Source: a virus (lineage: Duplodnaviria; Caudoviricetes). Taken from it: a stretch of 64,000 nucleotides of DNA. The stretch lies in IMG/VR virus record IMGVR_UViG_3300037608_000261, positions 1-64,000 of that record. One strand, written 5' to 3'. Positions within the stretch are counted from its first letter, which is position 1. Each line of letters begins with the position of its first letter. The position numbers were made by a program, and so were the translations under genes. This document shows positions 1,106-53,031 of the stretch, piece after piece. The notes under the pieces were generated by a model that saw nothing but the letters and a program-made list of their open reading frames with translations, had not been told where the DNA came from and ran no database searches.

Positions 1106-1704
1106 TTGTATTTTTCCCCTTTTTGGCTAATTAGTTTGTAATACTTGAGATTCACATCCTTGCATAGGTCGAGGTATTTCCCATTTTTGAGACGAATTAT
1201 TTTCCTGTGGCATTGCTTTTCGACAAGAGAATACTCACACGACCCGGCTCGACGGATTTCCTTATTTAGTGTACCCGCGCCGCCGTTATAAGCCCTGAGA
1301 GCAAAATAGAGATTGTCATCCTTGCAGATTACCACCCCATAAAGATAACGGTCATAGAGTATAAGTGCCCGAATGGACCAGGCAGGATCATAGGGAGAGG
1401 GTTCGACAGAAATCTCTTTTAGCGCCTTTTCCCGCTCCTGAATCCATTCCGCCGTTTCCGGCATAAACTGACCAAGGCCCATACCGCCGTCGAAAGCTGT
1501 TATGCCAGCATTGCACCTGCTTTCCTGCTCGATTTGACCCATAAAAAGGTGATAAGGGGCATCTACGCCGATAAAGTAACGCGCCTCACGGATAACACGG
1601 GGGCGGTACTTGTTACACCTGTCCAGGGCATTAGAGTCCGAGACAGAGAGCAAGGATAATAGCAGCGTAAAGTATACCGCGAAACAGCATAATGCTCTGG
1701 ACAT
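1102..1704 (-). CDS. Endolysin, lytic transglycosylase (SLT-like) with N-terminal signal/SAR segment
   Basis: Catalytic QES, GLGQFMP and AYNGG motifs; hydrophobic N-terminus. Confidence 0.85.
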   Translation of the reverse strand: MSRALCCFAVYFTLLLSLLSVSDSNALDRCNKYRPRVIREARYFIGVDAPYHLFMGQIEQESRCNAGITAFDGGMGLGQFMPETAEWIQEREKALKEISVEPSPYDPAWSIRALILYDRYLYGVVICKDDNLYFALRAYNGGAGTLNKEIRRAGSCEYSLVEKQCHRKIIRLKNGKYLDLCKDVNLKYYKLISQKGEKYK

Positions 1705-5196: not shown

Positions 5197-5224
5197 AAAT
5201 AAGATTAAACGAGATATGCATAAA

Positions 5225-5274
5225 AATGAAAATACAGGAAAAACGAAGGATCGCGATAGAAAAACGAAGGATTA
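5225..5274 (-). promoter_or_regulatory. Putative late promoter upstream of the portal
   Basis: Two GAAAAACGAAGGAT direct repeats (5238-5251, 5259-5272; 21-bp period) and a TATTTT -10 candidate; 46/50 identical to 50385-50434. Confidence 0.75.
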
Positions 5275-5286
5275 AGAAAAGAGGGG

Positions 5287-5316
5287 AAAAACAGGGGCCG
5301 GGAAACCGGCCCCTGT
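5287..5316 (-). terminator. Intrinsic terminator upstream of the portal promoter
   Basis: Perfect 11-bp stem ACAGGGGCCGG/CCGGCCCCTGT with a 4-nt loop, followed by a T-run on the minus strand. Confidence 0.7.
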
Positions 5317-5348
5317 GCCAAGAACCTGCCAAGGCAGCTTATAAATGC

Positions 5349-5392
5349 TTTAATCAATTTTGTCGGAGGTTCGAATCCTCCACGGCCCACCA
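5349..5392 (+). other. 3' half of a tRNA (probably Lys-TTT); att-core-like site
   Basis: TTTAATCAA...GTCGGAGGTTCGAATCCTCCACGGCCCACCA has part of the anticodon loop, the T-arm, the acceptor 3' strand and CCA. No 5' half or D-arm is present upstream. Confidence 0.8.
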
Positions 5393-5551
5393 ATACTTAT
5401 AATGAGAATAACAAAATTACTTACGTATAGCACATGCAAAGGGAGTATTGGGCTTTTTGACCGTATTCTGAATTACGGAAAGAAAGGTTGGGTTTATAGA
5501 TAGCACCATGGCTGCAAAGAACGAGACCTGACCCCTTGCCTTTCCCCTTAC

Positions 5552-7810
5552 CTATGATAAGAAATCAATAAACTTTGTAAAACTTCCCTCAGACCGTTCA
5601 AATGCTTTCTCAATTAGGGACATTGGTTTACCAAGCTTGTATCTTTTTTGGTAGCCAGACGCATCGTATTTTACATCAATCAGAACTCCCGCTTTTTTCA
5701 GGACTGGCAGGACTTTATCTTCAAATTTGCCATATGATCTCCCTAATCTTAGTCTGAAGATGTTCTCATTTAACTGCGTCGATTTTAGGAACCTTCTCAT
5801 GATACGTTCTGTCAACAAAATTTCCTCGTCGATCTCGTTGGCCGGTAATGATGCCGTTTGGTATTGGTCTAGATACTTAATCTCAAAACCATGCCCTGCA
5901 AGTAGTCTGAAAACCTGATCAGGACCAAAAAAGCTATTTTCAGAATCGTTGTCATACACACTTCTGATATCACAGTCTAATAGTTTGGCCCCTTTCACTT
6001 CGGTTGTTTCATAAAGATCCAGTCTATCAAACCGACATTGTTCAAAAGTGCAATCAATCAACTTAGTATTCTCTAATCCAGAACTTTGAAAATAACAATT
6101 CTTGAAGGTTTTATTCGACAATTCAACCGCATTCAAAGAGTTCGGCGGCAAAATGAGTCCTGAAACTGTGGTAGTCTCTTTCATATCACCTGCCAAAAGC
6201 CTGATAAATATGGCTCCCAGATTCTCCCGGACAAAAGATACCATACCTTCTTTTTGGCAAAGAGCCACTAACAGTTCCTCCGCGGTAGCCGTCCTATAGG
6301 CCTTCGACTTAAGACTTTGCACTACAGTCTCGAAAGCTTGTTGAGGCAATATCCCCACTCTCAGCATCTGCATTAACGACGGGCGATCATCAGCTATAAT
6401 CTGATTTGCAAGGGACACCCCGATAAAATAATAGTAAAATTCCTGGTGGTCGAAACTAAAGGAATTACCTACGCCTTCTGTGCGAACAATCAACGCATGC
6501 TGTTTTATACGTTCTTTGATTTGGCGCTGATAGTTAGCGGTGAATCCTTTTGTTTCCGAGAACAAGTCCGCAATGTAGCCCATGACGTCATCCCCTAAAG
6601 ATTGTGTGTTGTTTATCCACATTTCTTGGGCAACTGAAGACAGTAATTCACGGTGCTCATCGACGGTTAATATGGGCCGAGCCACATCACCAGATCGATC
6701 TAACCACTTCGTATTGGCTTCTCTCTGCAATATTGCATCGACAAAATGTTCAAAATAATTCTGTGAGTCTCCGGCCGTAATGTTTCGTGCAATTTCTGCG
6801 AAGTCTTCACTTGTGACGAAGACATCCAGTAATTGCTTCACCAACACTGCTCTCGTGAGGATTGGATGGCTTGGTTGTAGCGCATTTGATAGAGTCTCAT
6901 ATGCACCATCGGGATTGTCAATCAATCGCATAGTAGCATATTCGACAAATTGCTCTCGATCCCATCTTTTCAATGATATTCTTGAAAAAGTCACATAATC
7001 TGATTGAATGGAATCAAAGAGACGAGCTTGCGTTGCGAAGCTTTTATAATCAAAGTAAGCTTTTCTCGCCGCGATCAACACCACCCCTTGTGAGTTCAGC
7101 TTATTCAATAGTTGGCCCAGAGAAGAAAGAGCCTCACCGGTTGAGCTTTCCATAAACATCTCTTCAAATCCATCAAGGGCAGGAACCAATATACCCATTT
7201 TCACCAATTCTATGAAGGAATCGTAATAGAAGACGTTGAACCGAAACCGATTAACTAGGGTGGCTATTATTATATCGTCAAGCCTTAAGAACGGTCTTCC
7301 CCCTAAGGGTATGGGCAATAGCAGCCAGGAAGATTCTTTTCGCTTATATCGTTCTGCCTGAATTCTAGCCAAATGATTAATTAATGTGGTTTTCCCCTCC
7401 CCTGCGTCAGATGTAATGTAGATGACCTGAGACGCCAGGGCATTTCTATTGTCCATCAATGTCTCAATCGCCTCAACAGTGTTCTCCACTTCATTCTGTG
7501 ATTCACTTGGGTCCTTTCCTATGTCTTCCAGAAATGAACCTTGAGGGCACACAAAATTCGGTTCCTGCTCCGAGAAATCTATGATTCTATCCGCCAACAT
7601 TGGTATGCGGGCTAATCTATTCACGATCCACGAAGACATGGAGGTCGACACGCCGTTTTCTTCGACATATAACTCCATATCTTTACGGCGCAACCTTATT
7701 TCAATGAGTTCATCACGGATATTTACCACAATCTCTTTGTTGTCACTTGCAATATCCATGGTTCGATCGGCAAATGAAGCCACAATTCTTTTGAAATCAA
7801 TCACATTCAT
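5552..7810 (-). CDS. STAND/NACHT-like NTPase with C-terminal pentapeptide-like repeats
   Basis: Walker A DAGEGKTT, Walker B LDGFEE, helical domain, then L/F-x-N-C-x-F repeats. Confidence 0.7.
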   Translation of the reverse strand: MNVIDFKRIVASFADRTMDIASDNKEIVVNIRDELIEIRLRRKDMELYVEENGVSTSMSSWIVNRLARIPMLADRIIDFSEQEPNFVCPQGSFLEDIGKDPSESQNEVENTVEAIETLMDNRNALASQVIYITSDAGEGKTTLINHLARIQAERYKRKESSWLLLPIPLGGRPFLRLDDIIIATLVNRFRFNVFYYDSFIELVKMGILVPALDGFEEMFMESSTGEALSSLGQLLNKLNSQGVVLIAARKAYFDYKSFATQARLFDSIQSDYVTFSRISLKRWDREQFVEYATMRLIDNPDGAYETLSNALQPSHPILTRAVLVKQLLDVFVTSEDFAEIARNITAGDSQNYFEHFVDAILQREANTKWLDRSGDVARPILTVDEHRELLSSVAQEMWINNTQSLGDDVMGYIADLFSETKGFTANYQRQIKERIKQHALIVRTEGVGNSFSFDHQEFYYYFIGVSLANQIIADDRPSLMQMLRVGILPQQAFETVVQSLKSKAYRTATAEELLVALCQKEGMVSFVRENLGAIFIRLLAGDMKETTTVSGLILPPNSLNAVELSNKTFKNCYFQSSGLENTKLIDCTFEQCRFDRLDLYETTEVKGAKLLDCDIRSVYDNDSENSFFGPDQVFRLLAGHGFEIKYLDQYQTASLPANEIDEEILLTERIMRRFLKSTQLNENIFRLRLGRSYGKFEDKVLPVLKKAGVLIDVKYDASGYQKRYKLGKPMSLIEKAFERSEGSFTKFIDFLS

Positions 7811-7820
7811 GGTTACTCCT

Positions 7821-8537
7821 TCAAAGGCCCCTTTCGCAATAATCGCTTGGAGCGTATTGTTTGTAGTGTTGAGGGGTTCGGCGATTGGGTTTAGTATGAA
7901 TATGCACTACCTTTGACCCTAACGCAAGAACTGTTCTTATCGTGGGCCAAAAGTCGTCATCGGAGGAGACTATTATTAACGGCGCCGCGCCATCCATGCA
8001 CAAATAAAATAAGTCAGTTGCCAACATTGTGTCGACCAGTTTTTGTTCGCCTCGATATATGAGATTAGACGGCTGCATTGTACAATTCGGTTTTGAGCAT
8101 CTCCCTATATTGATAAAATTAAACACATGTTTTATGGGACAACTAACATCGCCACACCCGTGGTCACCTGGGTCTGCGCAATGCAGATCACTTGGATAAG
8201 ATCTGATTCGATATGTGTGCATCAGCAATTCTTGCGGAGTTATCAGAAGCGACATTGCAAGCTCCATATTGACTATAAGGCTTCCGGCCGCGGAGGAGAC
8301 CGGCAGAACCGTTGGGAAACTAGCCTGGATCTCTGCAGACAACATCTGGGCGCGGCGTGAATTACCAGTCTGATCGCTCCAGCCGCCATAAAGACGAATT
8401 CTCACATTTGAAACGTTTTGTGGGAAATCTGAAGGTGTCAAAATTCCTAAGATCTGTGTAGCAATGGTAGCAAGGCCCCGTGATTTATGTAGTGGAATCA
8501 AATTATCATAATCTACAAGAATTTGAAGCATCAGCAA
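7821..8537 (-). CDS. NYN/PIN-family ribonuclease-like protein
   Basis: VDYDN, EQKLVDTMLATD and VSSDDDF acidic motifs typical of NYN/LabA folds. Confidence 0.75.
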   Translation of the reverse strand: MLMLQILVDYDNLIPLHKSRGLATIATQILGILTPSDFPQNVSNVRIRLYGGWSDQTGNSRRAQMLSAEIQASFPTVLPVSSAAGSLIVNMELAMSLLITPQELLMHTYRIRSYPSDLHCADPGDHGCGDVSCPIKHVFNFINIGRCSKPNCTMQPSNLIYRGEQKLVDTMLATDLFYLCMDGAAPLIIVSSDDDFWPTIRTVLALGSKVVHIHTKPNRRTPQHYKQYAPSDYCERGL

Positions 8538-8736
8538 TTATGCCCGTTAGTCGGTCGGGTGCTTAAGAACGCACCCAGACTATTCTCCAAGCTCCGCAAA
8601 CTCTGTTCCGTTTCTAAATGAAATCAATTTTCCCTCACATGTTGAATTATCAAATTTCTTCCTATTATATCCATTATCACCTGTAATGCTGCATGTCCAG
8701 AAAAATCCGGTAGTGGGTCAGTTTGAAATAATTAAT

Positions 8737-9162
8737 TTAATGAGGATAGAGATCATCACCAACAAAAATGATATGAAAAACATCATTTTGTCTAATTCCA
8801 GCTACACGACCGCCGTGTGAGTACGTAAATACTGTTAGTGAATTGACATCCTCAGTAACTATATCGGGGAAAGATTTAGCGTGAAACTGTTTTATAGGTA
8901 TATGCTCGTATCCCAACTGTTTTCTATCTGTTGAGGAAATATCTTTCCATTGTTTTTGAGATATCAATAAAAGTGTGTGTGCGAAATCAGCTTTGTCTTT
9001 GGGTTCACATTGGGACAAGCAATATGTTTTTCCGTATGGAATATTATAGAAAGAAAATATTGGTTTTTGGGAATCATAATCTATTTCTATTTGTTCTCGC
9101 TCTTTGTAGCGCTCATTTTCTTTATTAGCTTTCTTCTTCTTTAATAAGCTTCGTTTATCCAT
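8737..9162 (-). CDS. Putative RelE-fold toxin (MAG6450-like)
   Basis: FSF...CLS...LGYE.IP...RVAGIRQNDVFHIIF pattern; overlaps the 3' end of the Panacea gene. Confidence 0.55.
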   Translation of the reverse strand: MDKRSLLKKKKANKENERYKEREQIEIDYDSQKPIFSFYNIPYGKTYCLSQCEPKDKADFAHTLLLISQKQWKDISSTDRKQLGYEHIPIKQFHAKSFPDIVTEDVNSLTVFTYSHGGRVAGIRQNDVFHIIFVGDDLYPH

Positions 9163-9607
9163 CCTTCAGCCAAGATTTTAAATCTATTTTCATCGCTTCG
9201 GGTGTTATTTCATTATTAATACCTGCGTTTATATAACATTGGTCGGCATGTGCTAATTGCATAAGGCGAACAGCAGAATATTGACCAAAGAAATTATAAA
9301 TACCATCAAGGAAATCCTTTGTTTCATCGTCAATGGAAGATGGATTGAAAGCATTCTCGGAAGGGATACCTCCAGCGCCATAATGTTTATATTTACGATA
9401 GAGATCAGGGATAACAGGCCCATATTGCCATGCTATGATTTTATCATCATAAAGAGATGCCCCATATGCTGCAAGGTGAATACCTTGTGCATAATACACA
9501 AGCTTCTGAAGTTTTAAATTAGAAAGTAGCTCTTGATCTTCTTCTTGAGCTTTATAAAGGAAATAATCAGCTATATTAAAAGCAGAATATGTTGGCATTA
9601 TAACCAT
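9155..9607 (-). CDS. Panacea (DUF4065/SocA/GepA) antitoxin
   Basis: LSNLKLQKLVYYAQ and AWQYGPV motifs; start 9607 has an AGGAG SD. Confidence 0.85.
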   Translation of the reverse strand: MVIMPTYSAFNIADYFLYKAQEEDQELLSNLKLQKLVYYAQGIHLAAYGASLYDDKIIAWQYGPVIPDLYRKYKHYGAGGIPSENAFNPSSIDDETKDFLDGIYNFFGQYSAVRLMQLAHADQCYINAGINNEITPEAMKIDLKSWLKDG

Positions 9608-9700
9608 AATCGACCCTCCTTTTGACAAATTATCGTCTATTTGAGCCGCTTATTAATTATTGACATACCAATGAAGGCTTGTCAAGCAGTATGTGAAAAA

Positions 9701-10528
9701 TTACTCAATTAATTCAATAATATCTTCTATATTCCACAAATGATCTGTAACTCCTGCCGCTATTGCCGGTGTTATTCTCAATGTCTGGTGAATACGGCAA
9801 AAGTTATAATACATAAAATGAAGGGCTGCAGCATGAGCAAGGTTTTCTTCTTTCTTTGAAAATCCATTGGTAAGCCTTGTAAATCTTCTCATGCTCATTC
9901 TCATGGTAAGATTTTGTCTTTCAATATAGCTCGTAGATACCTTTTTAAGATCAGGATTGCCTTGAATAACTTTCTTTTCAGTTCCGATACATTGAGAGGG
10001 GCTATATTTTGCTTCATTAAACATTGGTGCACCGTACAACTTTATTAATTGACTGAAATCAATATTAGGCGCGGCGAAAGCATCTTCAACAGCTTCAAGA
10101 TACATCTTGTGACCGTCTGTTGTAAGTTGAACTCTATTACTTAATCTGCTTGCAAGGTTATTCATAAACTCTGTTGCTGTTACTATATTCCTGTTACCAA
10201 CACACCACGAAGGAACAAGTTTTGTATCGGCGCATATAGCGGTGAACGTCCATACATCACCATAGCCAAAAGTATTCTTTCTATCTTCAGGTACATTCTT
10301 GCTTTTAGCATAGCAGAAAGACCATATTTCATCGCATTGAATACGTTTACAAGTTAGATCGTGAAAAGCTTTGCCTTGATATTCAGAACAGACTTTTCCA
10401 ATATCAACGAGCAGTTTAGTGATTGTATTCTTTGATGCCCCTGTCATTCTAACGATAGCACGAATAGAATTGCCTTCCACTAAGGCGGCTATAATTTGTT
10501 TTTGTTTTTCTTTATTTAATCTGTTCAT
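9701..10528 (-). CDS. IS1-family DDE transposase
   Basis: N-terminal HTH; DEIWSF, TTDG and STSYIERQNLTMR motifs. Confidence 0.9.
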   Translation of the reverse strand: MNRLNKEKQKQIIAALVEGNSIRAIVRMTGASKNTITKLLVDIGKVCSEYQGKAFHDLTCKRIQCDEIWSFCYAKSKNVPEDRKNTFGYGDVWTFTAICADTKLVPSWCVGNRNIVTATEFMNNLASRLSNRVQLTTDGHKMYLEAVEDAFAAPNIDFSQLIKLYGAPMFNEAKYSPSQCIGTEKKVIQGNPDLKKVSTSYIERQNLTMRMSMRRFTRLTNGFSKKEENLAHAAALHFMYYNFCRIHQTLRITPAIAAGVTDHLWNIEDIIELIE

Positions 10529-10534
10529 ATTTAC

Positions 10535-10563
10535 ATTATATGCTTGAGCGGTTATGTTGTCAA
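10535..10563 (-). promoter_or_regulatory. Sigma70 promoter of the transposase, probably leaderless
   Basis: TTGACA-17 nt-TATAAT, then 6 nt to the ATG; the spacer carries an operator-like motif. Confidence 0.75.
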
Positions 10564-10601
10564 GCCTTTTGGTCAGTTTGCTAAATTTCGCAAATTAAAT
10601 A

Positions 10602-10630
10602 TTGACAAACAAATATTGATATGCTATTTT
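10602..10630 (+). promoter_or_regulatory. Sigma70 promoter of the HTH-peptidase gene, probably leaderless
   Basis: TTGACA-17 nt-TATTTT, then 6 nt to the ATG at 10637. Confidence 0.6.
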
Positions 10631-10636
10631 TTGTCT

Positions 10637-11776
10637 ATGAACGTTGAACAGTTCCGAACACCGGGCCAGCTTATAGATGCTTTAATAACTGAACGCAATT
10701 GGAGCCAAAGAACTTTAGCTATTATCGCAGGGATAGAAGAAACTGGTCTCAATAAAATCATCACGGGTAAAAAACAGGTTACAGCGGAAATGGCTATATT
10801 ATTGGGAGAAATTTTTGAACTTCCCGCAGAGAAATTTCTGGACTTGCAGAAGGCTTTCGACCTCGCACAAGCACGCATCATAGCTCGTCCCGATCCAAAT
10901 CGAGTTACTCGTGCACATATTTTTGGTGGATTACCTGTATCGGAAATGATTAAACGGAGATGGTTAGATGCTACAGATGTCAAAGATATTCCTAAAGTAG
11001 AAACGGCTTTAGCGAAATTTTTTGGTGTAAATTCTATTGATGAAATAGAAATACTTCCTCATGCAGCAAAGAAGACAAAGACATCTACCCCGGTTACGCC
11101 CGCTCAATTAGCATGGATTTATAGAGTAAAGGAAATCGCAAGTGAAATGCTTGTTGCTCGGTATTCTTCGGCTGGTGTCCAAAATGCTATCAAGCTTTTG
11201 AGCAGTTTATTATCTTCCCCTGAATTGTCTCGTAAAGTACCACGTATTCTCGCAGAGTGCGGAATACGATATGTCGTTGTAGAGACTTTATCAGCAGCAA
11301 AAATTGATGGAGTTTGTTTTTGGTTGAATGATTTTGCGCCTATAATAGGGATGTCAATACGATATGACCGTATTGATAATTTTTGGTTTGTTCTAAGACA
11401 TGAGTTAGAGCACGTTCTCCACCATGATGGTCGATCTGCCATTATGTTGGATACAGAACTTGAAGGAGAACGAGCAGGCACTGGTGCCGGTATCTTGGAA
11501 GAAGAACGTATAGCGAATGAAGCTGCCACGGAGTTTTGCGTATCCAAAGCTAAGATGGACAGCTTTGTAGCACGAAAATCGCCCTTTTTCCATGAAAGAG
11601 ACATCCTTGGTTTAGCAAACACCTTGCACATCCACCCCGGTTTGATAGCAGGGCAACTACAACACCGAACAGGCAGATATGATCTCTTCCGTAAGCACTT
11701 AGTTAAAATCCGCCATGCTATCGCCCCAGGGGCGATGGTTGATGGATGGGGAGACGTTGCTCCTATCGGACTATAA
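10637..11776 (+). CDS. XRE/HigA-type HTH fused to ImmA/IrrE (DUF955) metallopeptidase
   Basis: N-terminal HTH (PGQLI...WSQRTLA); DNFWFVLRHELEH HExxH motif. Confidence 0.85.
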   Translation: MNVEQFRTPGQLIDALITERNWSQRTLAIIAGIEETGLNKIITGKKQVTAEMAILLGEIFELPAEKFLDLQKAFDLAQARIIARPDPNRVTRAHIFGGLPVSEMIKRRWLDATDVKDIPKVETALAKFFGVNSIDEIEILPHAAKKTKTSTPVTPAQLAWIYRVKEIASEMLVARYSSAGVQNAIKLLSSLLSSPELSRKVPRILAECGIRYVVVETLSAAKIDGVCFWLNDFAPIIGMSIRYDRIDNFWFVLRHELEHVLHHDGRSAIMLDTELEGERAGTGAGILEEERIANEAATEFCVSKAKMDSFVARKSPFFHERDILGLANTLHIHPGLIAGQLQHRTGRYDLFRKHLVKIRHAIAPGAMVDGWGDVAPIGL

Positions 11777-11786
11777 GGAGGACTTA

Positions 11787-12266
11787 GTGTTAACAAAAAA
11801 GCACCAATTACAAAACTTCATTCGGTATTACAAGGAGCAAACAGGAGAAACACAGGTAAACATGAAAGATGTGGCTCGATTTGCGGTATCAAATGGATGG
11901 AAACTACCATCCCCTTCCGATCCGCTTGATATATTGGCAAAAGATTTCTCTGATGCTGCCCGTGAAGAGATCAAGCATGATAAAAAAACAGGGCATCCAT
12001 ACCGCGTAAATCATGCAATTAGGCAAGGACGAGGACAACAACTTCATCTCTGGATTGATATTGATGAAGCCCCGCGTAAACCAATGCTCAAGAGTTTGAT
12101 ACAGCGACGAGAACAAATGGTTGGCGATGGTCTACAACTCACTTATGACGCTGATCATTGGAATAGTGTTCATGAAAGAGAAGAACCTATCATTATGCCT
12201 TTAGATTTTACGGACGATATTGAGTGGCGCAAAAATGCCCCAAGAGAAAAAAGGAAAGCGGTTTAA
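11787..12266 (+). CDS. Hypothetical protein
   Basis: GTG start with an AGGAGG SD, directly after the HTH-peptidase gene. Confidence 0.65.
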   Translation: MLTKKHQLQNFIRYYKEQTGETQVNMKDVARFAVSNGWKLPSPSDPLDILAKDFSDAAREEIKHDKKTGHPYRVNHAIRQGRGQQLHLWIDIDEAPRKPMLKSLIQRREQMVGDGLQLTYDADHWNSVHEREEPIIMPLDFTDDIEWRKNAPREKRKAV

Positions 12267-12514
12267 TCATCGGTTTTTTTCCATCTTGCTTGAGCAGCTA
12301 ATGTTGCTATTTCTTTTCTTTGTTCTTCTGTTAACTTCTCCGCTCTTGCTTTGCCTCCCTTCAACCCTCCTAATCTTCCAAGGGCTACGGCAGCGGGGTT
12401 CTTTTCTCTGATGGGTTCTATTGGCGGGGCTTCTTCGGTAGGCTTTGATTCTGTGGTTTGATCTGTGATAAACTTAGCAAGTTGATTTATATCGGTAGGG
12501 GTCTTTTTCTTCAT
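12263..12514 (-). CDS. Small basic KGG-motif protein
   Basis: NPAAVALGRLGGLKGGKARAEKL motif; has its own promoter at the element end. Confidence 0.75.
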   Translation of the reverse strand: MKKKTPTDINQLAKFITDQTTESKPTEEAPPIEPIREKNPAAVALGRLGGLKGGKARAEKLTEEQRKEIATLAAQARWKKTDD

Positions 12515-12520
12515 GCTCTA

Positions 12521-12549
12521 AGTATAGCATGAGCGGTTAAGCATGGCAA
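12521..12549 (-). promoter_or_regulatory. Sigma70 promoter of the KGG protein, probably leaderless
   Basis: TTGCCA-17 nt-TATACT, then 6 nt to the ATG; shares the spacer motif with the transposase promoter. Confidence 0.7.
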
Positions 12550-12818
12550 GTGCAGAAAAAATGAAACTCACCCACTATCGAAAAATCCGCAAAATTCACT
12601 TTCAGGAAGGATTTATTGTCTACAGACATTCCAGGGATAAAAACTAATTATCCCCTACCAGTTTTTTTCTTATAAATCCCTCTATCGTTCCTATAGCTTT
12701 CGGTAGCTCTTTCCTTACCACCAGTTCATCTTTGTCATTGTAAAACAGCACATACGTCTTCCCATCTTCGTCTACGAATTCCATCTGGTAGTATTTGCTC
12801 TCGTCGGTATCCAAATTT

Positions 12819-13382
12819 TTAATACCTCGGCATCAGCTTCTCTGAATGTTGCTTATGTTTCACGAAATTGTCAATATATATACCGGCAAGCTCTGAATTT
12901 TTGAGTATCAATAAATTTTCTGCATTCTTCTCTTCTGCTGCTTTAGAAAAGTTAAATGAACCTGTAATAACAATCTGCTTATCGATAATAATGATCTTAT
13001 TGTGGGCTATAGAATGAGCATCATCAATATATGTAGGCACTTTCATATTTGCCAAAAAAGTTGCTGATGTATAGCTTGCTCCTTGTTTCTTCGGTTCTTT
13101 TCTTTGTGATTTATCAACTATGACTTCAACATTCACTGCTCTTTTTTTAGCATTAACAAGGGCTTTTGCAATCGGCGCTGAAGTAAATGAATATGCCTGA
13201 ACAAGAACTTCCATTGTAGCATTATCAATTTGTTTTACAATAGCAGCGGTGCAGCCCCCGTCAGGGCTGAAATAAACATGGGCAGGGGTGTTATTGAGGG
13301 TAAGATCAAATGAATGAGATGGAGTGCAGAAGACCGATAAAATTAGAAGGATAAAGAGAGGGGTTAAAACTGTTTTTCTCAT
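12819..13382 (-). CDS. Phospholipase D-family nuclease (Nuc-like) with signal peptide
   Basis: Single HKD motif HNKIIIID...GSFNFS...NAEN; N-terminal signal peptide from MRKT at 13382. Confidence 0.85.
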   Translation of the reverse strand: MRKTVLTPLFILLILSVFCTPSHSFDLTLNNTPAHVYFSPDGGCTAAIVKQIDNATMEVLVQAYSFTSAPIAKALVNAKKRAVNVEVIVDKSQRKEPKKQGASYTSATFLANMKVPTYIDDAHSIAHNKIIIIDKQIVITGSFNFSKAAEEKNAENLLILKNSELAGIYIDNFVKHKQHSEKLMPRY

Positions 13383-13463
13383 GAAGATCTCCTGATATGG
13401 ATTTATGAGCATTATAGTTCAAGGAATTGGGGATGTCAAAAGGGAAAGTGTTGGTTGTTTTTA

Positions 13464-13928
13464 TCAGTCAGATTTTCTGTGGGACATACCCGGATTGAAA
13501 TATCCATCAAGTTTTTCCAAAGCTTCCATTCTTGCCTGAACTGCCATATTGAATGCCTTCTCTTCACCGTATTTGTTTATTGAGAATTTCTTTTGTTTTG
13601 TCTTGCCAGGTACAGGTGACCACGTGGCCATCCAATACCAACGGTAATTACCTTCTTTATCAGGTTCATTGTTTCTACAGTGACATACTCCTGGAATACC
13701 TGATTTGCAATTACGTTTTACAATAGAACAGAATTCTTTTAGAGTCAGAGGATCATATAGGGAGAGAATTTCATTTAGATATTTCTTTGCAGCGGCAAGA
13801 GCTTTATTCTTACTCCCATATGTGGCATCACTGAAAGAACCGAAGTGTTTCTTGTTTTTTCGGGATATGGTTACTACCCATGAATGGGTACGGGTTTTAT
13901 CATTATCTATTCGTGTAATACCGTACAT
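13464..13928 (-). CDS. AP2-domain DNA-binding protein
   Basis: Two AP2-like units (GI.R...W.V....FS...YG...AL..AK; SGIPGV...W.ATW...FS..KYG..AF..A...R). Confidence 0.7.
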   Translation of the reverse strand: MYGITRIDNDKTRTHSWVVTISRKNKKHFGSFSDATYGSKNKALAAAKKYLNEILSLYDPLTLKEFCSIVKRNCKSGIPGVCHCRNNEPDKEGNYRWYWMATWSPVPGKTKQKKFSINKYGEEKAFNMAVQARMEALEKLDGYFNPGMSHRKSD

Positions 13929-14117
13929 GACTCATATATCATAAAATAAATTCTATTCCGAAACATTGAAAAACACTTGTTCATATGCAATTAGGGGATA
14001 GCAGCAAAATTGCTTTGTTGAAACAATTAATAATAATAGACAGTTAATCATTGACGGATATGTTTCTGATATGGTTAAAAATACGAAAAATAATTCTTGC
14101 ACCTTCAGGAGAAAAAC

Positions 14118-14393
14118 ATGACAAAGATAGACATTGTAAATAACCTATATGATAGATTGGGCCTTACGAAACAGGAGTGTGCCGATGTAGCAGATAGATT
14201 CTTTGAGATTATAAAAGAAACATTGGCAAAAGATGAAGATGTAAATATTTCCGGTTTTGGTAAGTTCACGGTGAAACAGAAAAATGCCAGGAGAGGAAGA
14301 AATCCTCAGACAGGGAATAAGATACAGATTGAGGAAAGGAAGGTACTACTTTTCAGGTTGAGTAAAGTTCTGAATGAGAAGGTAAATGAATAA
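14118..14393 (+). CDS. ihfA: Integration host factor alpha-like (HU/IHF) protein
   Basis: MTKIDIV...VNISGFGKFTVKQKNARRGRNPQTG signature; AGGAG SD. Confidence 0.85.
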   Translation: MTKIDIVNNLYDRLGLTKQECADVADRFFEIIKETLAKDEDVNISGFGKFTVKQKNARRGRNPQTGNKIQIEERKVLLFRLSKVLNEKVNE

Positions 14394-14605
14394 CCGGAGA
14401 TCAGCTTTTGTTAATTGGAATAATAGTGGTGAAAATAGAGGTTGTTGACAGCACCTGCGAAGCGTGGGCTGCGTGATTTTGCAGAGGCAAAGATTACCAG
14501 TTAAAACGTACTTCTTTGCCCTTAATGGGATAATTATTTTTGTCACCTACGACTAAGTAATTAATAATAATAATTGAGTTATCGATAATTACTAACTGAA
14601 ATGTG

Positions 14606-14664
14606 GTAGAACAGAAGGCTGTGCAGCGTGGCCGTTTTGAATATGCAGGAGCGCCTGGTTATGC
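14606..14664 (-). other. Degenerate attC-like site 3 (59 bp)
   Basis: R'' GCATAAC contains the stop codon of the 89-aa gene; R' GTTCTAC; arms pair weakly. Confidence 0.45.
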
Positions 14665-14928
14665 CTTTTTGGTCTTATCTTCCGACTTATTTAATTCCCA
14701 ACTTTGATTTTGAAAAACGTCATATCCATAGCTTGTGTAGTGGCCACAGGTGCAAGCAATGCTATGAAAAGGCATTGATGCGTCTTGTGTGTGCCGGTAA
14801 AGCGAAGGATCGCAATCTCGCGGAGCGCGCCCTCCGTATTTTGATATCTCTCTATCACGCCCGCAATGGAAACATCGGATGTAGCGCGGAATTTTACGAG
14901 ATTTCGTAGGCATTATATTTTCTCCCAT
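14659..14928 (-). CDS. Small Cys-rich cassette protein (CxxC...CxCxH)
   Basis: Lies between two attC-like sites; probable start 14913 after a GGAG SD. Confidence 0.55.
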   Translation of the reverse strand: MGENIMPTKSRKIPRYIRCFHCGRDREISKYGGRAPRDCDPSLYRHTQDASMPFHSIACTCGHYTSYGYDVFQNQSWELNKSEDKTKKA

Positions 14929-14938
14929 AATATTTTTT

Positions 14939-14995
14939 GCTTAACAACAAAATTACCCGCCGACGAAGGAAGTCGGGTCCATTTTGTTGTTAAGC
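14939..14995 (-). other. attC-like site 2 (57 bp)
   Basis: R'' GCTTAAC and R' GTTAAGC are exact complements; AACAAAAT/ATTTTGTT arms, bulged bases, CCGAC/GTCGG inner stem. Confidence 0.8.
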
Positions 14996-15007
14996 GTTTC
15001 TTTTTCG

Positions 15008-16099
15008 TCATTTCTGAACTTTGCCCTTTGCACGGAATCGGATAGGAACCGCCAACAAGTTTTCATAAACAACACGAGCTTGATTTAGAAGATCGTCATA
15101 GGTGATTACCTTTATATGCCCACGACGACTGAAATTTTCCTCATCTAATCTCTTTTCCAATTCAGGTGAAAGCTGCGAGTGACGACCAATGACAACGAGC
15201 CCTTCCGGCCTGCGTATCCCTGGCAACTTGGATTCTGCGTAAGCACGATTATCCGCAATCCATGCCTGAAAATCTCTTAATTGCCCAATAGCGTCGTTCA
15301 ATTCGCTGTGGATTCTACCCTTGACTGTGAATAAGCGGTCGGTTGATTTTTCTATCTCGACTAAGATGTAGGTCCCATCCACCCTCCGGACAACAAAATC
15401 AGTAATAAAATCGTCACCTAATTCGTGCTTACTTCTTAGCTCAATTGCCAGTGGGTCAAGGAATATAGGATGGTCGAATAGAAACTGATGGATTTCCTCC
15501 TCTTTTCCATGCAATGTCGCGAGAAGAGTCTCGAACTGCTCTAAGAGTTGCTTGTTCAATGTGAGGTGCGAATCAAGTAAAAGGGAAAGAAATGCATCTC
15601 GAACAGAATGGTCGCTCTCTTCTTTTACTGAGACCATTGTCTCCATGGCGAAGTTTATTATTAATTTCCTTTGAATCTCGCGATCTATTGCTTGCTCTAA
15701 AAGTAAACCTCTAAGTATTTGAAGCGCATACATAGATAAAACCGGCGTGACAGAAATACCGCATCTTTCAAGCCAGTCAGAAGGGACAAACATCGATTTG
15801 ATTTCAGAAAGGGGGATATGGGCGGCAAGAGCCAAAAGAATTTTCTGGGCATCGGTGCTATGTAAACCTGAAAGAAGATGCTCTTTCAATGAATCCAGCC
15901 CTGACTCACCCCATGCAACGAGAGCCAAAAGTGCTGGTACTGCGATGATTTCATCAAAGAGTCCATCCATCTCTGATAATTCGATTACAAAGGGCAGAGA
16001 TTCCTGTTCATGCTGGCGTGCAAGTAGCGCTATACCTGATAGAACTTCTTCTACAGAAATATGCTGTTGATTGAGTAATTGTCGTATTTCTTCGATCAT
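15008..16099 (-). CDS. Shedu (SduA/DUF4263)-type PD-(D/E)xK nuclease with an extra N-terminal domain
   Basis: EEEIHQFL, DF..., VEIEK, AIGQLRDFQAW and GLVVIGR motifs in the C-terminal half. Confidence 0.75.
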   Translation of the reverse strand: MIEEIRQLLNQQHISVEEVLSGIALLARQHEQESLPFVIELSEMDGLFDEIIAVPALLALVAWGESGLDSLKEHLLSGLHSTDAQKILLALAAHIPLSEIKSMFVPSDWLERCGISVTPVLSMYALQILRGLLLEQAIDREIQRKLIINFAMETMVSVKEESDHSVRDAFLSLLLDSHLTLNKQLLEQFETLLATLHGKEEEIHQFLFDHPIFLDPLAIELRSKHELGDDFITDFVVRRVDGTYILVEIEKSTDRLFTVKGRIHSELNDAIGQLRDFQAWIADNRAYAESKLPGIRRPEGLVVIGRHSQLSPELEKRLDEENFSRRGHIKVITYDDLLNQARVVYENLLAVPIRFRAKGKVQK

Positions 16100-16114
16100 T
16101 TGTCCTATTTTTTA

Positions 16115-16178
16115 GCCCAAAATCATGGCTCACCTGGAGCCTGATTTTTAGGCGATCCGGTGCAGCCGATAGTTATGT
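16115..16178 (-). other. attC-like site 1 (64 bp)
   Basis: R'' ACATAAC just after the stop codon; L'' GGCTGCACC / L' GGTGAGCC with one extra base; R' TTTGGGC (G to T change). Confidence 0.7.
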
Positions 16179-16180
16179 GT

Positions 16181-16732
16181 CTAAATTACATGTGGAACGT
16201 ATCCGGGAATGTTTATTGTGTCGTAATACTTGTTATTAATGTCAATAAGAAGAAGAATGGGATCGCCATCTTTCATGAAGTTGGGAAATACTGCTTTATC
16301 GACTAATCCCATAGTAATTTCTTTATCTCTCCATTTGGCGGGATACTTCAACTCAGTGAAGTTGAACTTATTGTGGGCACACCCGTTCCTGACATGTCGC
16401 AAAAACTGGATATCCGGTTCTTTTGCGATAGCATTATAAGTTTTGGTTTCTTTAAGTGTTTCCCAAGCGGATACCACAAAAATCTTGTTTATTTCGCTGA
16501 AGGAGCTTCTTAAGTTTTTAGGGGAAAGTAGCCCTTGGCTTTCAATTTCTCCTATGATACTCGTAACGTTCAAGTTTATATGCTGATTTGGATTTGTGTA
16601 TGACGATTCAATTGACGCGGTAGGGTAGTTCTTTATCAGTATGGCCTGGACATCTGGAATCCGGAGGGCCATCACACCAAGGCACATTTCCAGATAGGCG
16701 TCATACGTTTCCGAAGTTATGAACTTTTCCAT
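16181..16732 (-). CDS. Hypothetical protein with a HEPN-like RxxxxH motif
   Basis: FLRHVRNGCAH in a helical context; first cassette of the array. Confidence 0.5.
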   Translation of the reverse strand: MEKFITSETYDAYLEMCLGVMALRIPDVQAILIKNYPTASIESSYTNPNQHINLNVTSIIGEIESQGLLSPKNLRSSFSEINKIFVVSAWETLKETKTYNAIAKEPDIQFLRHVRNGCAHNKFNFTELKYPAKWRDKEITMGLVDKAVFPNFMKDGDPILLLIDINNKYYDTINIPGYVPHVI

Positions 16733-16752
16733 TTTGCCTCCATTATTCGTTC

Positions 16753-16803
16753 ACATAACAATTAATATACCAAGTTTGTTTTTCTTCAAATGATATACCA
16801 AGT
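16753..16803 (-). other. attI-like site
   Basis: Core GTTATGT (exact complement of the attC1 R'') preceded by two ACTTGGTATAT direct repeats (16765-16775, 16793-16803). Confidence 0.5.
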
Positions 16804-16970
16804 ACAGGAAAAATCAATAAAAAATTCCTATATTTTCTACAATAATAAACATAAATTATGTTGTTATGTGGTTTTTGCTGATATTACGTTGTAAAAACAA
16901 ATATACCTTTTTGTGGTCTTTTTGCATGAGGGCTTTGAATAGATGATTACCACATGAAACATTTCATAAT

Positions 16971-17094
16971 TTTAGATTCGTCCGCCTATCGCTTTCAGGA
17001 AGTTATTTATGCCGCAGGGAAAAATCATGAAGTGTGCATTTCGGGGAGAAAGCAGTGCATCCGGCAAAAACCACGTAGTATCAACCACAGGAGC
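16971..17094 (-). repeat. 46-bp-period repeat, two units plus a partial one
   Basis: Units at 17063-17094, 17017-17048 and a partial unit ending at 17002 match the reverse complement of the 50.5-kb array. Confidence 0.7.
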
Positions 17095-17309
17095 TATACA
17101 TAACAAATCCTGCTTTATCTCCTAATATAGCCAGTTACACCATGTTTTCCTTTTACATGTTTTTCTATCCCCCAAGGGTATCTTCAATATTGCATATGAT
17201 TGTTCGCCAATCAGCATTTTTTAGAGTAAATACCTGTCTTCTGTCTGGCTCCGCTGCATGACGAACTCAATAGTATTGTAATAATCCCGGTAACTCTTTA
17301 TGTTTCGGG

Positions 17310-17714
17310 CTATTCTCGCATTTCCATGTCTGGGTCATTTGAGGCAAATTCAACCGCATCTCCGCCGTCTATGGTCTCCATAACATGGAATGGATCATCA
17401 ATCATGTTTTTGGCCATTCGCATGTCCTCATAGAGGAAGGCGGCCATAATATTCAATTCCGGCTTGCCGTAATCCATAGTTGAAAACCATTCTTGATCGA
17501 GAAAATCTCCAAAAGAGAAGTCTTCTTTATCAATATAGATTTTCTTCAACGGCCACCAGTATGGCCCATAGGTCCTGTAGCGAAGTGGGCTCTTTAGAAG
17601 AATGACCTTTAGATTTGCCGAAAACTTTTCTATCCACTGATCAAGGGGCTGCTTGGCCACGGCCTGCATTAAAAAAGGTTGTAAATCGTTTTCCGAGGGC
17701 TTATAGATGTCCAT
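17310..17714 (-). CDS. ulx: Ulx-like anti-restriction accessory protein
   Basis: LLKSPLRYRTYGPYWWPLKK resembles P1 Ulx; located downstream of darB as in P1. Confidence 0.7.
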   Translation of the reverse strand: MDIYKPSENDLQPFLMQAVAKQPLDQWIEKFSANLKVILLKSPLRYRTYGPYWWPLKKIYIDKEDFSFGDFLDQEWFSTMDYGKPELNIMAAFLYEDMRMAKNMIDDPFHVMETIDGGDAVEFASNDPDMEMRE

Positions 17715-48546: not shown

Positions 48547-48610
48547 GGTTAGCCTCCTACTGCCGTTTCACAATCCACGCCCACTCGGGGGTGACTAATA
48601 CAGAGAAATT

Positions 48611-50384: not shown

Positions 50385-50434
50385 AATGAAAATACAGGAA
50401 AAACGAAGGATTGTAATAGAAAAACGAAGGATTA
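50385..50434 (-). promoter_or_regulatory. Putative late promoter upstream of the capsid operon
   Basis: 46/50 identical to 5225-5274; GAAAAACGAAGGAT at 50398-50411 and 50419-50432. Confidence 0.75.
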
Positions 50435-50529
50435 CATGATTTAGGGTGAAAAGAAATCGCTCCTGTCATTTCAAGTGGGTAATACAGTTTGTTGGCTGCA
50501 AGATATGTCGGCACTTGAAGTGTGAATAA

Positions 50530-50760
50530 CTTCCTGAAGTTGATACTGCGTGGTTTTTGCCTTAGATGCAACACTTCTTCATGTAATTCACACTTCGTGG
50601 CTTTTGCCTGAAGCGTAATGTTCTTCCTGAAGTTGATACTGCGTGGTTTTTGCCAAAGGCACTGCTTTCTTACCGAAATGCACGCTGCTCGGTTCTTTCC
50701 TTAGTCACAAACTTCTTCCTGAATTTTATACTGCGTGGTTTTTGCCTTAAATACAATGCT
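50530..50760 (+). repeat. Five-unit tandem array: 32-bp degenerate repeat plus 14-15-bp linker
   Basis: Units start at 50530, 50577, 50623, 50669 and 50715; consensus CTTCCTGAAGTTGATACTGCGTGGTTTTTGCC. Confidence 0.85.
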
Positions 50761-50836
50761 TCAAATCGGACTCTACAACACTGATAAAAATTCCCCTTGA
50801 CATAATGTCATAACAGGAAGAAAATGTGAAAGAGCA

Positions 50837-51730
50837 ATGTTTTATAAAATTACTGTTAATTCTTGGAATGATATCCTTTTACTCTTTGATAAGATGAATG
50901 GAAGAGGTTGGGACTGGGTATTTAGAGGACAATCTAATGATAGGTTGGAATTGTCTACCAAATTTGAAAGAGACGCAAAAAAATATCGATGCGATGACAC
51001 TTATTGGTTTAGGAATCGTGAGAAATATATATTATGGGATTTTCAACGTAGAGCGCATCAGTATATTAAGATTTTACCAAAATTAGAAAACCTCATAGAA
51101 TGGTTATCTCTATTACAGCACCATGGGGGAGCAACGAGGCTACTTGATTTTACATGGTCGTGTTATGTTGCTGCATTCTTTGCTGTCGAAACATCGGAGA
51201 CTGATTCGATCATATGGGCAGTCAATATTAAGAAATTGATTGAGCAGCTAAAGAATATTAACGATAGCAAGATAACAGAGAAAGAACATGCATGGGAAGA
51301 TATTATCGAAAGGAATAATCAGTGGGCCAATGGTATAATCAAGGATAGAAAAAATGATAATCTCGTCCTCTTGGTCGAGCCTTTCCAGCAGCATGAACGA
51401 ATTTCTATACAGCAAGGGCTTTTTCTTTTTCCAGGCAATATTGAAGAGTCTTTTGAGTTTAATATATCCTCAGTTTTTAAGTTTGATTTTAAGGAACTTT
51501 CAGATAATAATGCGTCTAATATAGTATTTTCAAGAAATGATAAATTTGATTTTTCAGATATCTCAATTATAAAAATCGTTATTCCATTTGGTTTACACTC
51601 AGAAGTACTTATGAAACTATATAACATGAATATAACAGCTGCCACTCTTTTTCCTGGGCTTGATGGATTTGCTCGAAGTCTATCTTATCGTTTTAGAGAA
51701 CTTGATTATTTCTTAAATCGTAAAGGTTGA
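50837..51730 (+). CDS. FRG-domain protein
   Basis: WVFRGQSN, LQHHGGATRLLDFT..AAFFA and RISIQQGLFL motifs. Confidence 0.9.
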   Translation: MFYKITVNSWNDILLLFDKMNGRGWDWVFRGQSNDRLELSTKFERDAKKYRCDDTYWFRNREKYILWDFQRRAHQYIKILPKLENLIEWLSLLQHHGGATRLLDFTWSCYVAAFFAVETSETDSIIWAVNIKKLIEQLKNINDSKITEKEHAWEDIIERNNQWANGIIKDRKNDNLVLLVEPFQQHERISIQQGLFLFPGNIEESFEFNISSVFKFDFKELSDNNASNIVFSRNDKFDFSDISIIKIVIPFGLHSEVLMKLYNMNITAATLFPGLDGFARSLSYRFRELDYFLNRKG

Positions 51731-52079
51731 AGAAAGACTTATTACATAATGTAATTATTGTTGTTTCTTTGATGATAGGCCATTTTGTTGCAGGTGGAGC
51801 ACACAATTTTTAATATTGATTCGATTTAGAAATTCATTTCTAAGATGTACTTCCTGTTATCGAATTTTTCATAAAGAAACAATTTGTCCTATTTTCAAGT
51901 GGTAATGTAGAAAACAATAATAATTTTCTTGACATAATTTGCATACAATATAAGAATAAAACAAAAAGTTATATAAAAATGGTGAAGAAAGGGTGGGGAT
52001 AGCAATTGAAGGTTTCCCTCTGATCCAAAAAAACTAACTCTTTTTGCTGCTATTGCTCATTAATAAAGTGGAGGGCACA

Positions 52080-52676
52080 ATGGATATAGACAAGTTCCAG
52101 AAAATAGCTTCTTGTTGCAGTTCCTGCGTTGTCGCGGTTGCATTAATCATCGGTGCTATCTGGGCCATCTACACATTTAATTCAGAGCTACGTGTACAAA
52201 ACGCAAAAGCACAGTTGGAAAAACTGAATAGAGATCTTGCTCAAGAACCAAAATTAGAGATAGATATTGAGATGCAGCAACTATCTACGCATCCATCAAA
52301 AGAGAGAATAATAATTGGCAAACTATTGGTAACAAATATTGGGACTGGCGACGTAGTTTTGAAGCAAGCAGGTAAAGATAAGGATGACCCACCGCTACAC
52401 CTTTATGAAGTGAGATGGAGCAAAGGCCATGAGGATTGGAAACACGTGGTATCGTTTTATTTGCCTTTAGGAAAGGATATGAGGTTTGGGGAGATGACAG
52501 TATATGCAGGACTAACAAACCAAGCGCGCTTTTGTATCACAGTGCCACGACCAGGTTTATATGTTTTGGTGTTTAAAATACCTGGGGACAACGTTGAATT
52601 GGAGCGGGCAAAGAGAGCAGGGGCTACGCTCCCCGACATTTTTTCGCACGCATCTAACTATATATTGGTAAAATAG
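52080..52676 (+). CDS. Hypothetical membrane-anchored protein
   Basis: N-terminal TM helix, short coiled coil, beta-rich domain; GGAGG SD; own TTGACA promoter upstream. Confidence 0.65.
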   Translation: MDIDKFQKIASCCSSCVVAVALIIGAIWAIYTFNSELRVQNAKAQLEKLNRDLAQEPKLEIDIEMQQLSTHPSKERIIIGKLLVTNIGTGDVVLKQAGKDKDDPPLHLYEVRWSKGHEDWKHVVSFYLPLGKDMRFGEMTVYAGLTNQARFCITVPRPGLYVLVFKIPGDNVELERAKRAGATLPDIFSHASNYILVK

Positions 52677-53031
52677 CTCATGACATTTAAATTTATTGTT
52701 AAAACTATTGAGTAGTAAAAGTGGCACAAAGCCATTATATAACCGTTGACAAGCTAATAAATCGCTTCAGTCAATCAGCCATAAATACGGTCACTATGGC
52801 TAAACCTGGCTACTTCCTCTGTTTCAATTGGTAGTTCTCGATAATGTATTTATTTGAAATCACTCAGTTGTAGGTGCAGTTATTTCGTATAGCAACTTGA
52901 AATCCTCATATTGGCACCCTTCTCTTTGAATATATGAAGTGTCGGGGTTAGCATATCTCATATTAGCTACTCAATGCGAGAAAGAGACTCTATAAATCTT
53001 AGGTAAGAGGCCTGGAGCCCCCTACCCTGTT

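Follow-up and report, generated by a model that had tools for sequence, protein, structure and literature searches.

What is the tandem array that lies in front of an FRG-domain gene in the genome of a distant P1-like phage, and what could it do there? The window (the whole stretch of DNA analyzed, 64,000 nucleotides) belongs to a phage whose 541-amino-acid capsid protein is 30% identical to P1 gp23, and it also carries an Ulx-like gene and very large DarB-like ORFs. A sequence-only reading of the window had described a non-coding array of five ~46-bp units upstream of the FRG gene. TRF reports a single tandem array, at positions 50530-50751, with a period of 46, 4.8 copies, and a score of 155. 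A repeat search resolves this array (array A) into five head-to-tail units that start at 50530, 50577, 50623, 50669, and 50715 and are spaced by 47, 46, 46, and 46 bp. The 32-nt core of unit 1 is identical to that of unit 3 and differs from that of unit 5 by 2 mismatches, an agreement that none of 100 shuffles matched. By direct count, unit 2 agrees with the unit 1 core at 25 of 32 positions, and unit 4 agrees with it at 21 of 32. Autocorrelation of array A has peaks at lags 46 and 92, which means that the alternating higher-order period is real; a 23-bp half-unit period, hinted at by the two occurrences of CCTGAA in the consensus, has no autocorrelation support. The array contains no gene and its period is not divisible by 3. 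The earlier description of a real, non-coding array with units 1 and 3 identical, unit 5 nearly so, and a 92-bp superperiod is borne out.

The array lies between the upstream region of the capsid gene and the FRG gene (PF08867, E value of 1e-21), and the corresponding place of P1, upstream of gene 23, is occupied by parS, parB, parA, incA, repA, and oriR. Both parts of this positional comparison, which had been drawn in the sequence-only reading, are correct. The match is a coincidence, however; this is a spot that tolerates insertions, and it does not reflect a common function. Five IMG/VR relatives of the phage (L010 to L014), with capsid proteins 61 to 90% identical, have no array. In four of the five (L010 to L013), the spike/baseplate operon directly adjoins the capsid gene, from which it follows that positions 50434-53029 are an inserted island in this phage (island A) (Table 1). 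Array A stands at the head of this island, which has the layout module-gene-module-gene-module, and the region at its 3' end (52813-52834) resembles positions 14601-14544 in a second island. Both genes of island A have TTGACATAAT promoters (50798-50810 and 51929-51938), and the -35 element of the FRG gene is inside a possible operator, the perfect palindrome TGACAT-A-ATGTCA.

In the relatives G001 and G002, which likewise have no array, no more than ~80 bp separates the Ulx-like gene from the homologue of window position 5273 and below that comes after it. This direct junction identifies positions 5274-17318 as the second island (island B), and array B stands at its head. The sequence-only reading had noted a homologous array before the other accessory locus. 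This array is real, but it is partial (17092-16987, minus strand), and positions 17092-16994 on the minus strand are 78% identical to units 3 to 5 of array A. Its type 3 head occurs on metagenome contig L211 followed by CTTCCTG without any unit. The cargo of island B includes Shedu (15008-16099), a PLD-like nuclease (12819-13412), an AP2/HNH protein, and a SocA/Panacea antitoxin (9155-9628), together with an NYN-domain protein, an IS1-like transposase fragment (9701-10528), a protein with an HTH and an M78 peptidase, and a 752-amino-acid protein with a weak, sub-threshold pentapeptide-repeat match. The 183-amino-acid ORF directly behind array B (16181-16732, minus strand) has no matches beyond weak ones to Cas13b models, in their HEPN region (E value of ~0.002), and it may encode a small HEPN RNase. 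No homologues of the FRG protein or of this ORF were found in IMG/VR. A search of the whole 81.9-kb phage record with a profile of the unit found, beyond arrays A and B, only the single unit C, which is upstream of a promoter-like TTGCCA-17-TATACT and a small ORF (12514-12266). The phage therefore carries three copies of the element, all of them in horizontally acquired, low-GC islands and each of them before accessory genes, mostly defense genes. Both islands adjoin a 33-bp backbone motif (50398-50430 and 5238-5270) that precedes two late operons. This motif contains two copies of GAAAAACGAAGGATT, 21 bp apart at 50398 and 50419, and is 91% conserved in relative L172 (895-927); it probably belongs to the late promoters and may be an activator site.

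Table 1. Coordinates of the arrays, islands, and associated features in the window
Feature	Position	Strand	Details
Accessory island A	50434..53029		GC 30-40% vs ~49% in the backbone; absent from relatives L010-L013
Array A 5' head (type 1)	50455..50529	+	Degenerate edge unit with TTCAAGTGGGTAAT (50470-50483)
Array A, five 46-47-bp units	50530..50762	+	Three subtypes: units 1, 3, and 5; unit 2; unit 4
Array A tail motif TTCAAATCGGACT	50760..50772	+	45 nt from unit 5 start; family consensus TTCAAGTGGTAAT
Promoter-like TTGACA-17-GAAAAT for FRG gene	50797..50825	+	-35 inside palindrome TGACATAATGTCA
FRG-domain gene, array A cargo	50837..51730	+	PADLOC candidate defense family PDC-S15
Zero-unit module between island A genes	51850..51906	+	CTTCCTG, 37 nt, TTCAAGTGGTAAT at offset 44
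Promoter-like TTGACA-17-AAGAAT for second island A gene	51929..51957	+	
Second cargo ORF of island A, 210 aa	52044..52676	+	No family match
Collapsed module CTTCCTCTGTTTCAATTGGTAG near island A 3' end	52813..52834	+	
Accessory island B, ~12 kb	5274..17318		Absent from relatives
Array B, two units and start of third	16987..17092	-	Homologous to array A units 3-5
Array B head (type 3)	17093..17289	-	Also in MAG locus L167 and metagenome contigs L207 and L211
Array B tail and leader	16756..17002	-	Tail motif 16958-16946
Array B cargo	15008..16732	-	183-aa ORF (16732-16181) and Shedu SduA homologue (16099-15008)
Single diverged unit C	12574..12616	-	Profile match at 12609-12574(-)

Outside the phage, the element is found on chromosomes. 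A first pattern scan of GTDB genomes was loose and returned many chance matches; among the matches listed, only the one on L019 is real. L019, 167 kb long, is a contig of MAG G006, from an uncultured member of the Syntrophorhabdaceae; its array, which is 97.6% identical to units 1 and 2 over 83 bp, stands before genes for an AbiLi/PDC-M38A ATPase and a DUF3226 protein. Searching MAG G006 with array A gave 37 matches at ~30 loci, many of them at contig ends, while MAGs G010 and G033 gave at least 18 and at least 6 matches, respectively. The element is present in 3 of 61 sampled Syntrophorhabdaceae genomes, at many loci in each. A 20-mer from the unit occurs on 14 metagenome contigs, all of which have true arrays, and the IMG/VR viral contig L007 has 2.3 units before a gene. 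Two exact-pattern scans of IMG/VR returned single matches (one of them, L007, real) or nothing, and blastn of the array against phage and plasmid collections returned no match. Among the arrays in G006, G010, and G033, none is spanned by a large ORF. The phage capsid gene was not found in these three MAGs, which argues that the chromosomal arrays are not remnants of this phage. The shared repeat makes Syntrophorhabdaceae the probable host lineage, and the 97.6% identity offers a host lead for distant P1-like phages that are known only from metagenomes. The MAG lineage also has other high-copy repeat families, of ~160 bp (L202:6595-6756), ~300 to 570 bp (L202:52-620), and ~740 bp (L204:3057-3798), with dozens of copies of each in G010 and G033.

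Alignment of 56 units gives the consensus CTTCCTGAAATGCACACTGCGTGGTTTTTGCCTGAAGCACTGCTTT, in which the best-conserved blocks are CTTCCTGAA, CTGCGTGGTTTTTGCC, and CTGCGTGGTTTTTGCCTGA. The 14- to 15-nt linkers, which had been described as differing, are conserved between loci. In autocorrelation, the array of MAG locus L137 peaks at lag 93, and since the higher-order period is also found there, the subtype alternation in the phage array is inherited rather than a local peculiarity. Across the family, alternation is roughly supported, in a regular-expression split of units into subtypes that left 17 of the 56 unclassified. The number of units per locus ranges from 0 to 6, with one unit at 27 loci, two at 24, three at 14, and four to six at 4. 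Arrays usually begin exactly at CTTCCTG, and ahead of the first unit is a conserved head, of which at least three kinds exist; the head of array A is also present at MAG loci L143, L163, and L158. An array closes with a final CTTCCTG and, at a constant offset of 43 to 49 nt downstream, a motif close to TTCAAGTGGTAAT, which reads like a decayed unit start. The motif that head and tail have in common is direct, not inverted. The near-palindrome ACTTCCTGAAGT is present in some units and absent from most. Near-consensus sigma-70-type promoters lie 60 to 250 nt downstream of the arrays, at variable distances, and their position places the arrays probably outside the downstream mRNAs. By eye, neither a sigma-54 promoter nor an extended -10 element could be fitted to the tail motif, and no fitting antisense promoter was seen. 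A group within Syntrophorhabdaceae carries many copies of the element on its chromosomes, as 46-bp units in 0 to 6 copies with degenerate edges.

To describe the surroundings of the arrays, we took the nearest ORF of at least 120 amino acids on each side, on either strand, at 47 loci. The downstream gene is co-oriented with the array at 36 of the 47 loci (P = 3e-4) and the upstream gene at 30 of the 47 (P = 0.08). Arrays are sense to both neighbors at 23 loci and antisense to both at 4 (P = 3e-4). In a raw tally, the downstream gene is often a defense gene. In the phage, the downstream genes include FRG/PDC-S15 and Shedu, and on L019 the downstream gene is AbiLi. At other loci they include a pAgo-type SIR2, a KAP NTPase/PDC-S20, three OLD/AriA/HEC-like ATPases, two N6/N4 methylases, a T5orf172 gene, two metallophosphoesterases, an IS110 transposase, and ordinary genes. 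Loci L143 and L150 have the layout array-ORF-array-ORF. L019 (1600-1647, minus strand) and L146 (array at 1515-1558, minus strand) have a common junction, at which a unit is truncated after CTTCATGTAATYC and continues into YTGCCYTTAGGRAACC; in L019 this junction is at the 3' end of the AbiL cassette, and this cassette is therefore bracketed by array sequence in direct orientation. On L159 (1-1671, minus strand), an IS110-family transposase gene starts ~240 nt after the array, and the unit breaks right after CTTCCT. From this single case, an IS110-family element may target the repeat. We considered whether the type 2 head is the end of the IS110 element on L159, and rejected this because the two have only ~60 to 120 nt in common.

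Based on these observations, we conclude that array A is almost certainly a copy of a lineage-wide dispersed tandem repeat, of a kind closest to mycobacterial interspersed repetitive units (MIRUs) and with a layout like that of BOX elements. MIRUs are dispersed minisatellites (VNTR loci) in which repeats of tens of base pairs are arranged in tandem and whose orientation follows the flanking genes. The 46-bp element likewise consists of tandem repeats of tens of base pairs at many intergenic loci, its copy number varies from locus to locus, its orientation follows the flanking genes, and it is restricted to a single lineage. It differs in that MIRUs are described with short ORFs coupled to the flanking genes, whereas the 46-bp arrays have a period not divisible by 3 and show no such coupling, and in that the 46-bp family is also borne by a phage and mostly stands before accessory and defense genes. 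The family itself is undescribed and belongs to an uncultured lineage, but it is of a kind that is already known.

The likeness to pneumococcal BOX elements is one of architecture. BOX elements (boxA-boxB × n-boxC) carry a tandem run of boxB modules, variable in length, flanked by two different end modules; in Streptococcus suis, alternative end modules are found around the same middle unit, and a module- and orientation-dependent effect on downstream expression has been reported (PMC3049150). The 46-bp family has, in a comparable way, three head types and a tail around 0 to 6 units. In contrast, BOX elements end with terminal inverted repeats and form a stem-loop, while the head and tail of the 46-bp element carry a direct motif and its units have no consensus fold; there is no sequence similarity between the two, and they come from different phyla. 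An origin of the array as a MITE or as a BOX element proper is rejected, since it has no terminal inverted repeats, stem-loop, or target duplication, and one local inverted repeat only.

In three presence/absence comparisons, the 5' edge of the inserted DNA coincides with an array or has one close by. Two of these are islands A and B, and the third is a chromosomal cassette, in which an array and an HXXEE gene on contig C51 of G006 are missing from contig C39 of G010. In G006, the stop codon of the conserved gene upstream is directly followed by the array, and no target-site duplication is visible at the empty site. The sharing of sequence between loci is mosaic and extends from the arrays into the leaders. 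Window positions 16756-17033 are ~76% identical to the leader at L162, up to ~24 nt before the ATG, and the ORFs that follow are unrelated. Likewise, positions 51889-51985 and a leader at MAG locus L154, where the gene behind it is unrelated, are 87% identical, and the leaders of L141 (a methylase) and L165 (DUF2971) have 163 nt in common. The breakpoints differ from pair to pair and do not fall at one fixed position. This argues against a single precise crossover site and for exchange that is homology driven or illegitimate rather than site specific. There is also a counterexample. An array of G006 points at a rubrerythrin gene, and G010 and G033 have this gene in synteny but no array there, which indicates that an array does not always move together with the gene downstream of it. 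The cargo-capture platform that the sequence-only reading had listed among its explanations is compatible with the 5'-edge position in the three comparisons, which fall short of proving it.

The role that we tentatively favor for the element, although with somewhat less than even confidence, is one at the DNA level. The array copies would provide portable homology, and recombination or gene conversion between them would move or swap promoter-plus-gene cassettes between chromosome and phage, while slippage or unequal crossing-over would alter the number of units. The array may, in addition, affect in cis how strongly the downstream gene is expressed. Against the exchange role, the arrays have no linked recombinase or transposase, and neither a recombination event nor an intermediate was seen. 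The bias of the arrays toward the orientation of the downstream gene could reflect a regulatory role equally well. The presence of the repeat in both chromosome and phage before FRG, Shedu, AbiL, SIR2, KAP NTPase, and OLD-like genes, with the same leaders ahead of unrelated genes, points to a common pool of defense cassettes. The repeat would then be a specific sequence at which defense cassettes may be exchanged or regulated, and, if the exchange role is true, defense genes would have a new route by which to spread.

The main rival is a cis-regulatory role, although we consider it rather improbable. The units would bind a host DNA-binding protein that acts as a silencer, insulator, or activator and controls or shields the downstream promoter, with the number of units tuning the effect. 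The conservation of the family is in sequence and not in structure, and CTTCCTGAA and CTGCGTGGTTTTTGCC, its best-kept columns, look like a protein-binding motif. The pointing of arrays at the downstream gene (36 of 47 loci) would be expected of such a device, and the effect of BOX modules and their orientation on downstream expression offers a precedent (PMC3049150). Near-consensus -35 promoters ~60 to 250 nt downstream could be its targets, but the distance between array and promoter is not fixed. The near-palindrome ACTTCCTGAAGT could be a binding site where it occurs, but it is missing from most units. Moreover, no candidate regulator is encoded beside the arrays, and the number of units falls to zero at loci that keep head and tail.

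It is doubtful, though only slightly more so, that the element is a selfish or neutral dispersed minisatellite, which would be propagated through duplication and recombination, build up in islands and intergenic DNA that tolerate insertions, and have reached the phage as a passenger without a role. Degenerate edges, variable copy number, and the frequent location of arrays at contig ends, as is typical of assembly-breaking repeats, are consistent with this, as is the richness of the lineage in other repeat families, and we found no function-defining feature. However, the bias of 23 loci sense to both neighbors versus 4 antisense to both implies selection or a directional mechanism, and specific motifs are kept across diverged copies.

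We regard as unlikely the stronger proposal that the arrays are the recombination sites of an undescribed cassette-exchange system, with an integron-like outcome and with tandem 46-bp repeats in place of attC hairpins; a system of this kind would shuttle promoter-bearing defense genes between the host chromosome and P1-like phage-plasmids. Like attC sites, the arrays are repeated non-coding modules between promoter-plus-gene units that are mostly co-oriented, and many of the cargo genes are defense genes. Unlike attC sites, they have neither an imperfect palindrome nor an R''/R' core, they are scattered over many contigs, and their cassettes carry their own promoters. That the arrays are themselves attC sites is rejected, because there is no hairpin consensus and the motif is GGTAAT, not GTTRRRY. 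G006 does have an integron (IntI, TIGR02249, 442 bits), and its cassettes are separated by a different repeat. On contig C9 of G006 (L174, 1-5909), the integron integrase (4548-5909) is accompanied by divergently placed small ORFs, and an 85-bp repeat (510-594 and 3921-4003), unrelated to the 46-bp arrays, probably represents the attC sites.

An element that acts as RNA, either in a UTR or through processed small RNAs resembling type III antitoxins or antisense RNAs that titrate CsrA, is very unlikely. Type III toxin-antitoxin loci (ToxIN, CptIN, and TenpIN) have tandem repeats of 34 to 45 nt upstream of a defense gene. The arrays resemble the ToxI, CptI, and TenpI repeats in being short tandem direct repeats upstream of an abortive-infection or defense gene, and their orientation follows local transcription. 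However, the 46-bp repeats precede many unrelated genes, none of which encodes a toxin of the ToxN/AbiQ type, and they lack a promoter before them, a terminator after them, and a conserved RNA fold. No promoter-like site is found upstream of array A on its strand, and strong ones lie downstream of it. A type III toxin-antitoxin system is therefore rejected. As for CsrA, its genes are present in all three array-bearing genomes, and each unit reads in antisense as the CsrA-type motif CAGGAAG, but the strand with CAGGAAG is antisense to the neighboring genes. RNAalifold on the 56 aligned units gives no consensus structure on either strand (energy of 0.0). Single-strand fold z-scores for the two strands are -1.5 and 0.07, not better than shuffles, and a search of the whole window against Rfam at the gathering threshold gave no match. 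Together with the conserved linkers and the strong promoters downstream, these results speak against the processed small-RNA array of the earlier reading.

That the units are phage-specific sites, i.e., C1-type operators, a partition centromere, or replication iterons of a phage-plasmid (P1 incC/incA and parS or F sopC), as the earlier reading had also suggested, is hardly credible. In its favor, P1 has parS, the par genes, and RepA iterons upstream of its capsid gene, and the 43-bp repeats of F sopC show that centromeres can be tandem arrays of such size. Against it, MAGs in which no phage capsid gene was found contain the element at ~30 chromosomal loci per genome, other genomes and contigs with no trace of this phage carry it as well, the array is absent from the closest phage relatives, and there is no ParA, ParB, or Rep gene in the island. 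Identification of the array as a lineage-wide repeat replaces the tempting operator, centromere, and small-RNA readings with one that can be tested.

Three further candidates concern known repeat systems. A Chi-like hotspot is rejected: the octamer CTGCGTGG has 6 occurrences in 99 kb of MAG DNA, its three placeable positions are in known arrays, in the phage it is found in array A only, and there is no overrepresentation of it beyond the arrays. A Y1/RAYT transposase is an unlikely mobilizer of REP type, since its genes are present in G006 and G033 and none was found in G010, and they therefore do not track the arrays. A CRISPR mini-array or RNA anti-CRISPR repeat is rejected for the arrays in view of their 14- to 15-nt linkers, which are conserved between loci where variable spacers of ~30 to 40 nt would be expected, and of the absence of an Rfam match.

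Two other repeats were observed. In the window, a solitary unit, GTCACCCCCGAGTGGGCGTGGATTGTGAAAC, at 48565-48595 on the minus strand, lies between the capsid gene terminator and the ribosome-binding site of the next late gene. We take it to resemble a type I-C CRISPR repeat, and it could be a solitary repeat of the RNA anti-CRISPR type. In two related IMG/VR contigs, L004 (7286-7364) and L006 (2886-2810, minus strand), CGTGGTTTTTGCC and CGTGATTTTTGCC occur 61 bp apart upstream of a gene, and this pair could be either a distant relative of the 46-bp unit or a chance resemblance.
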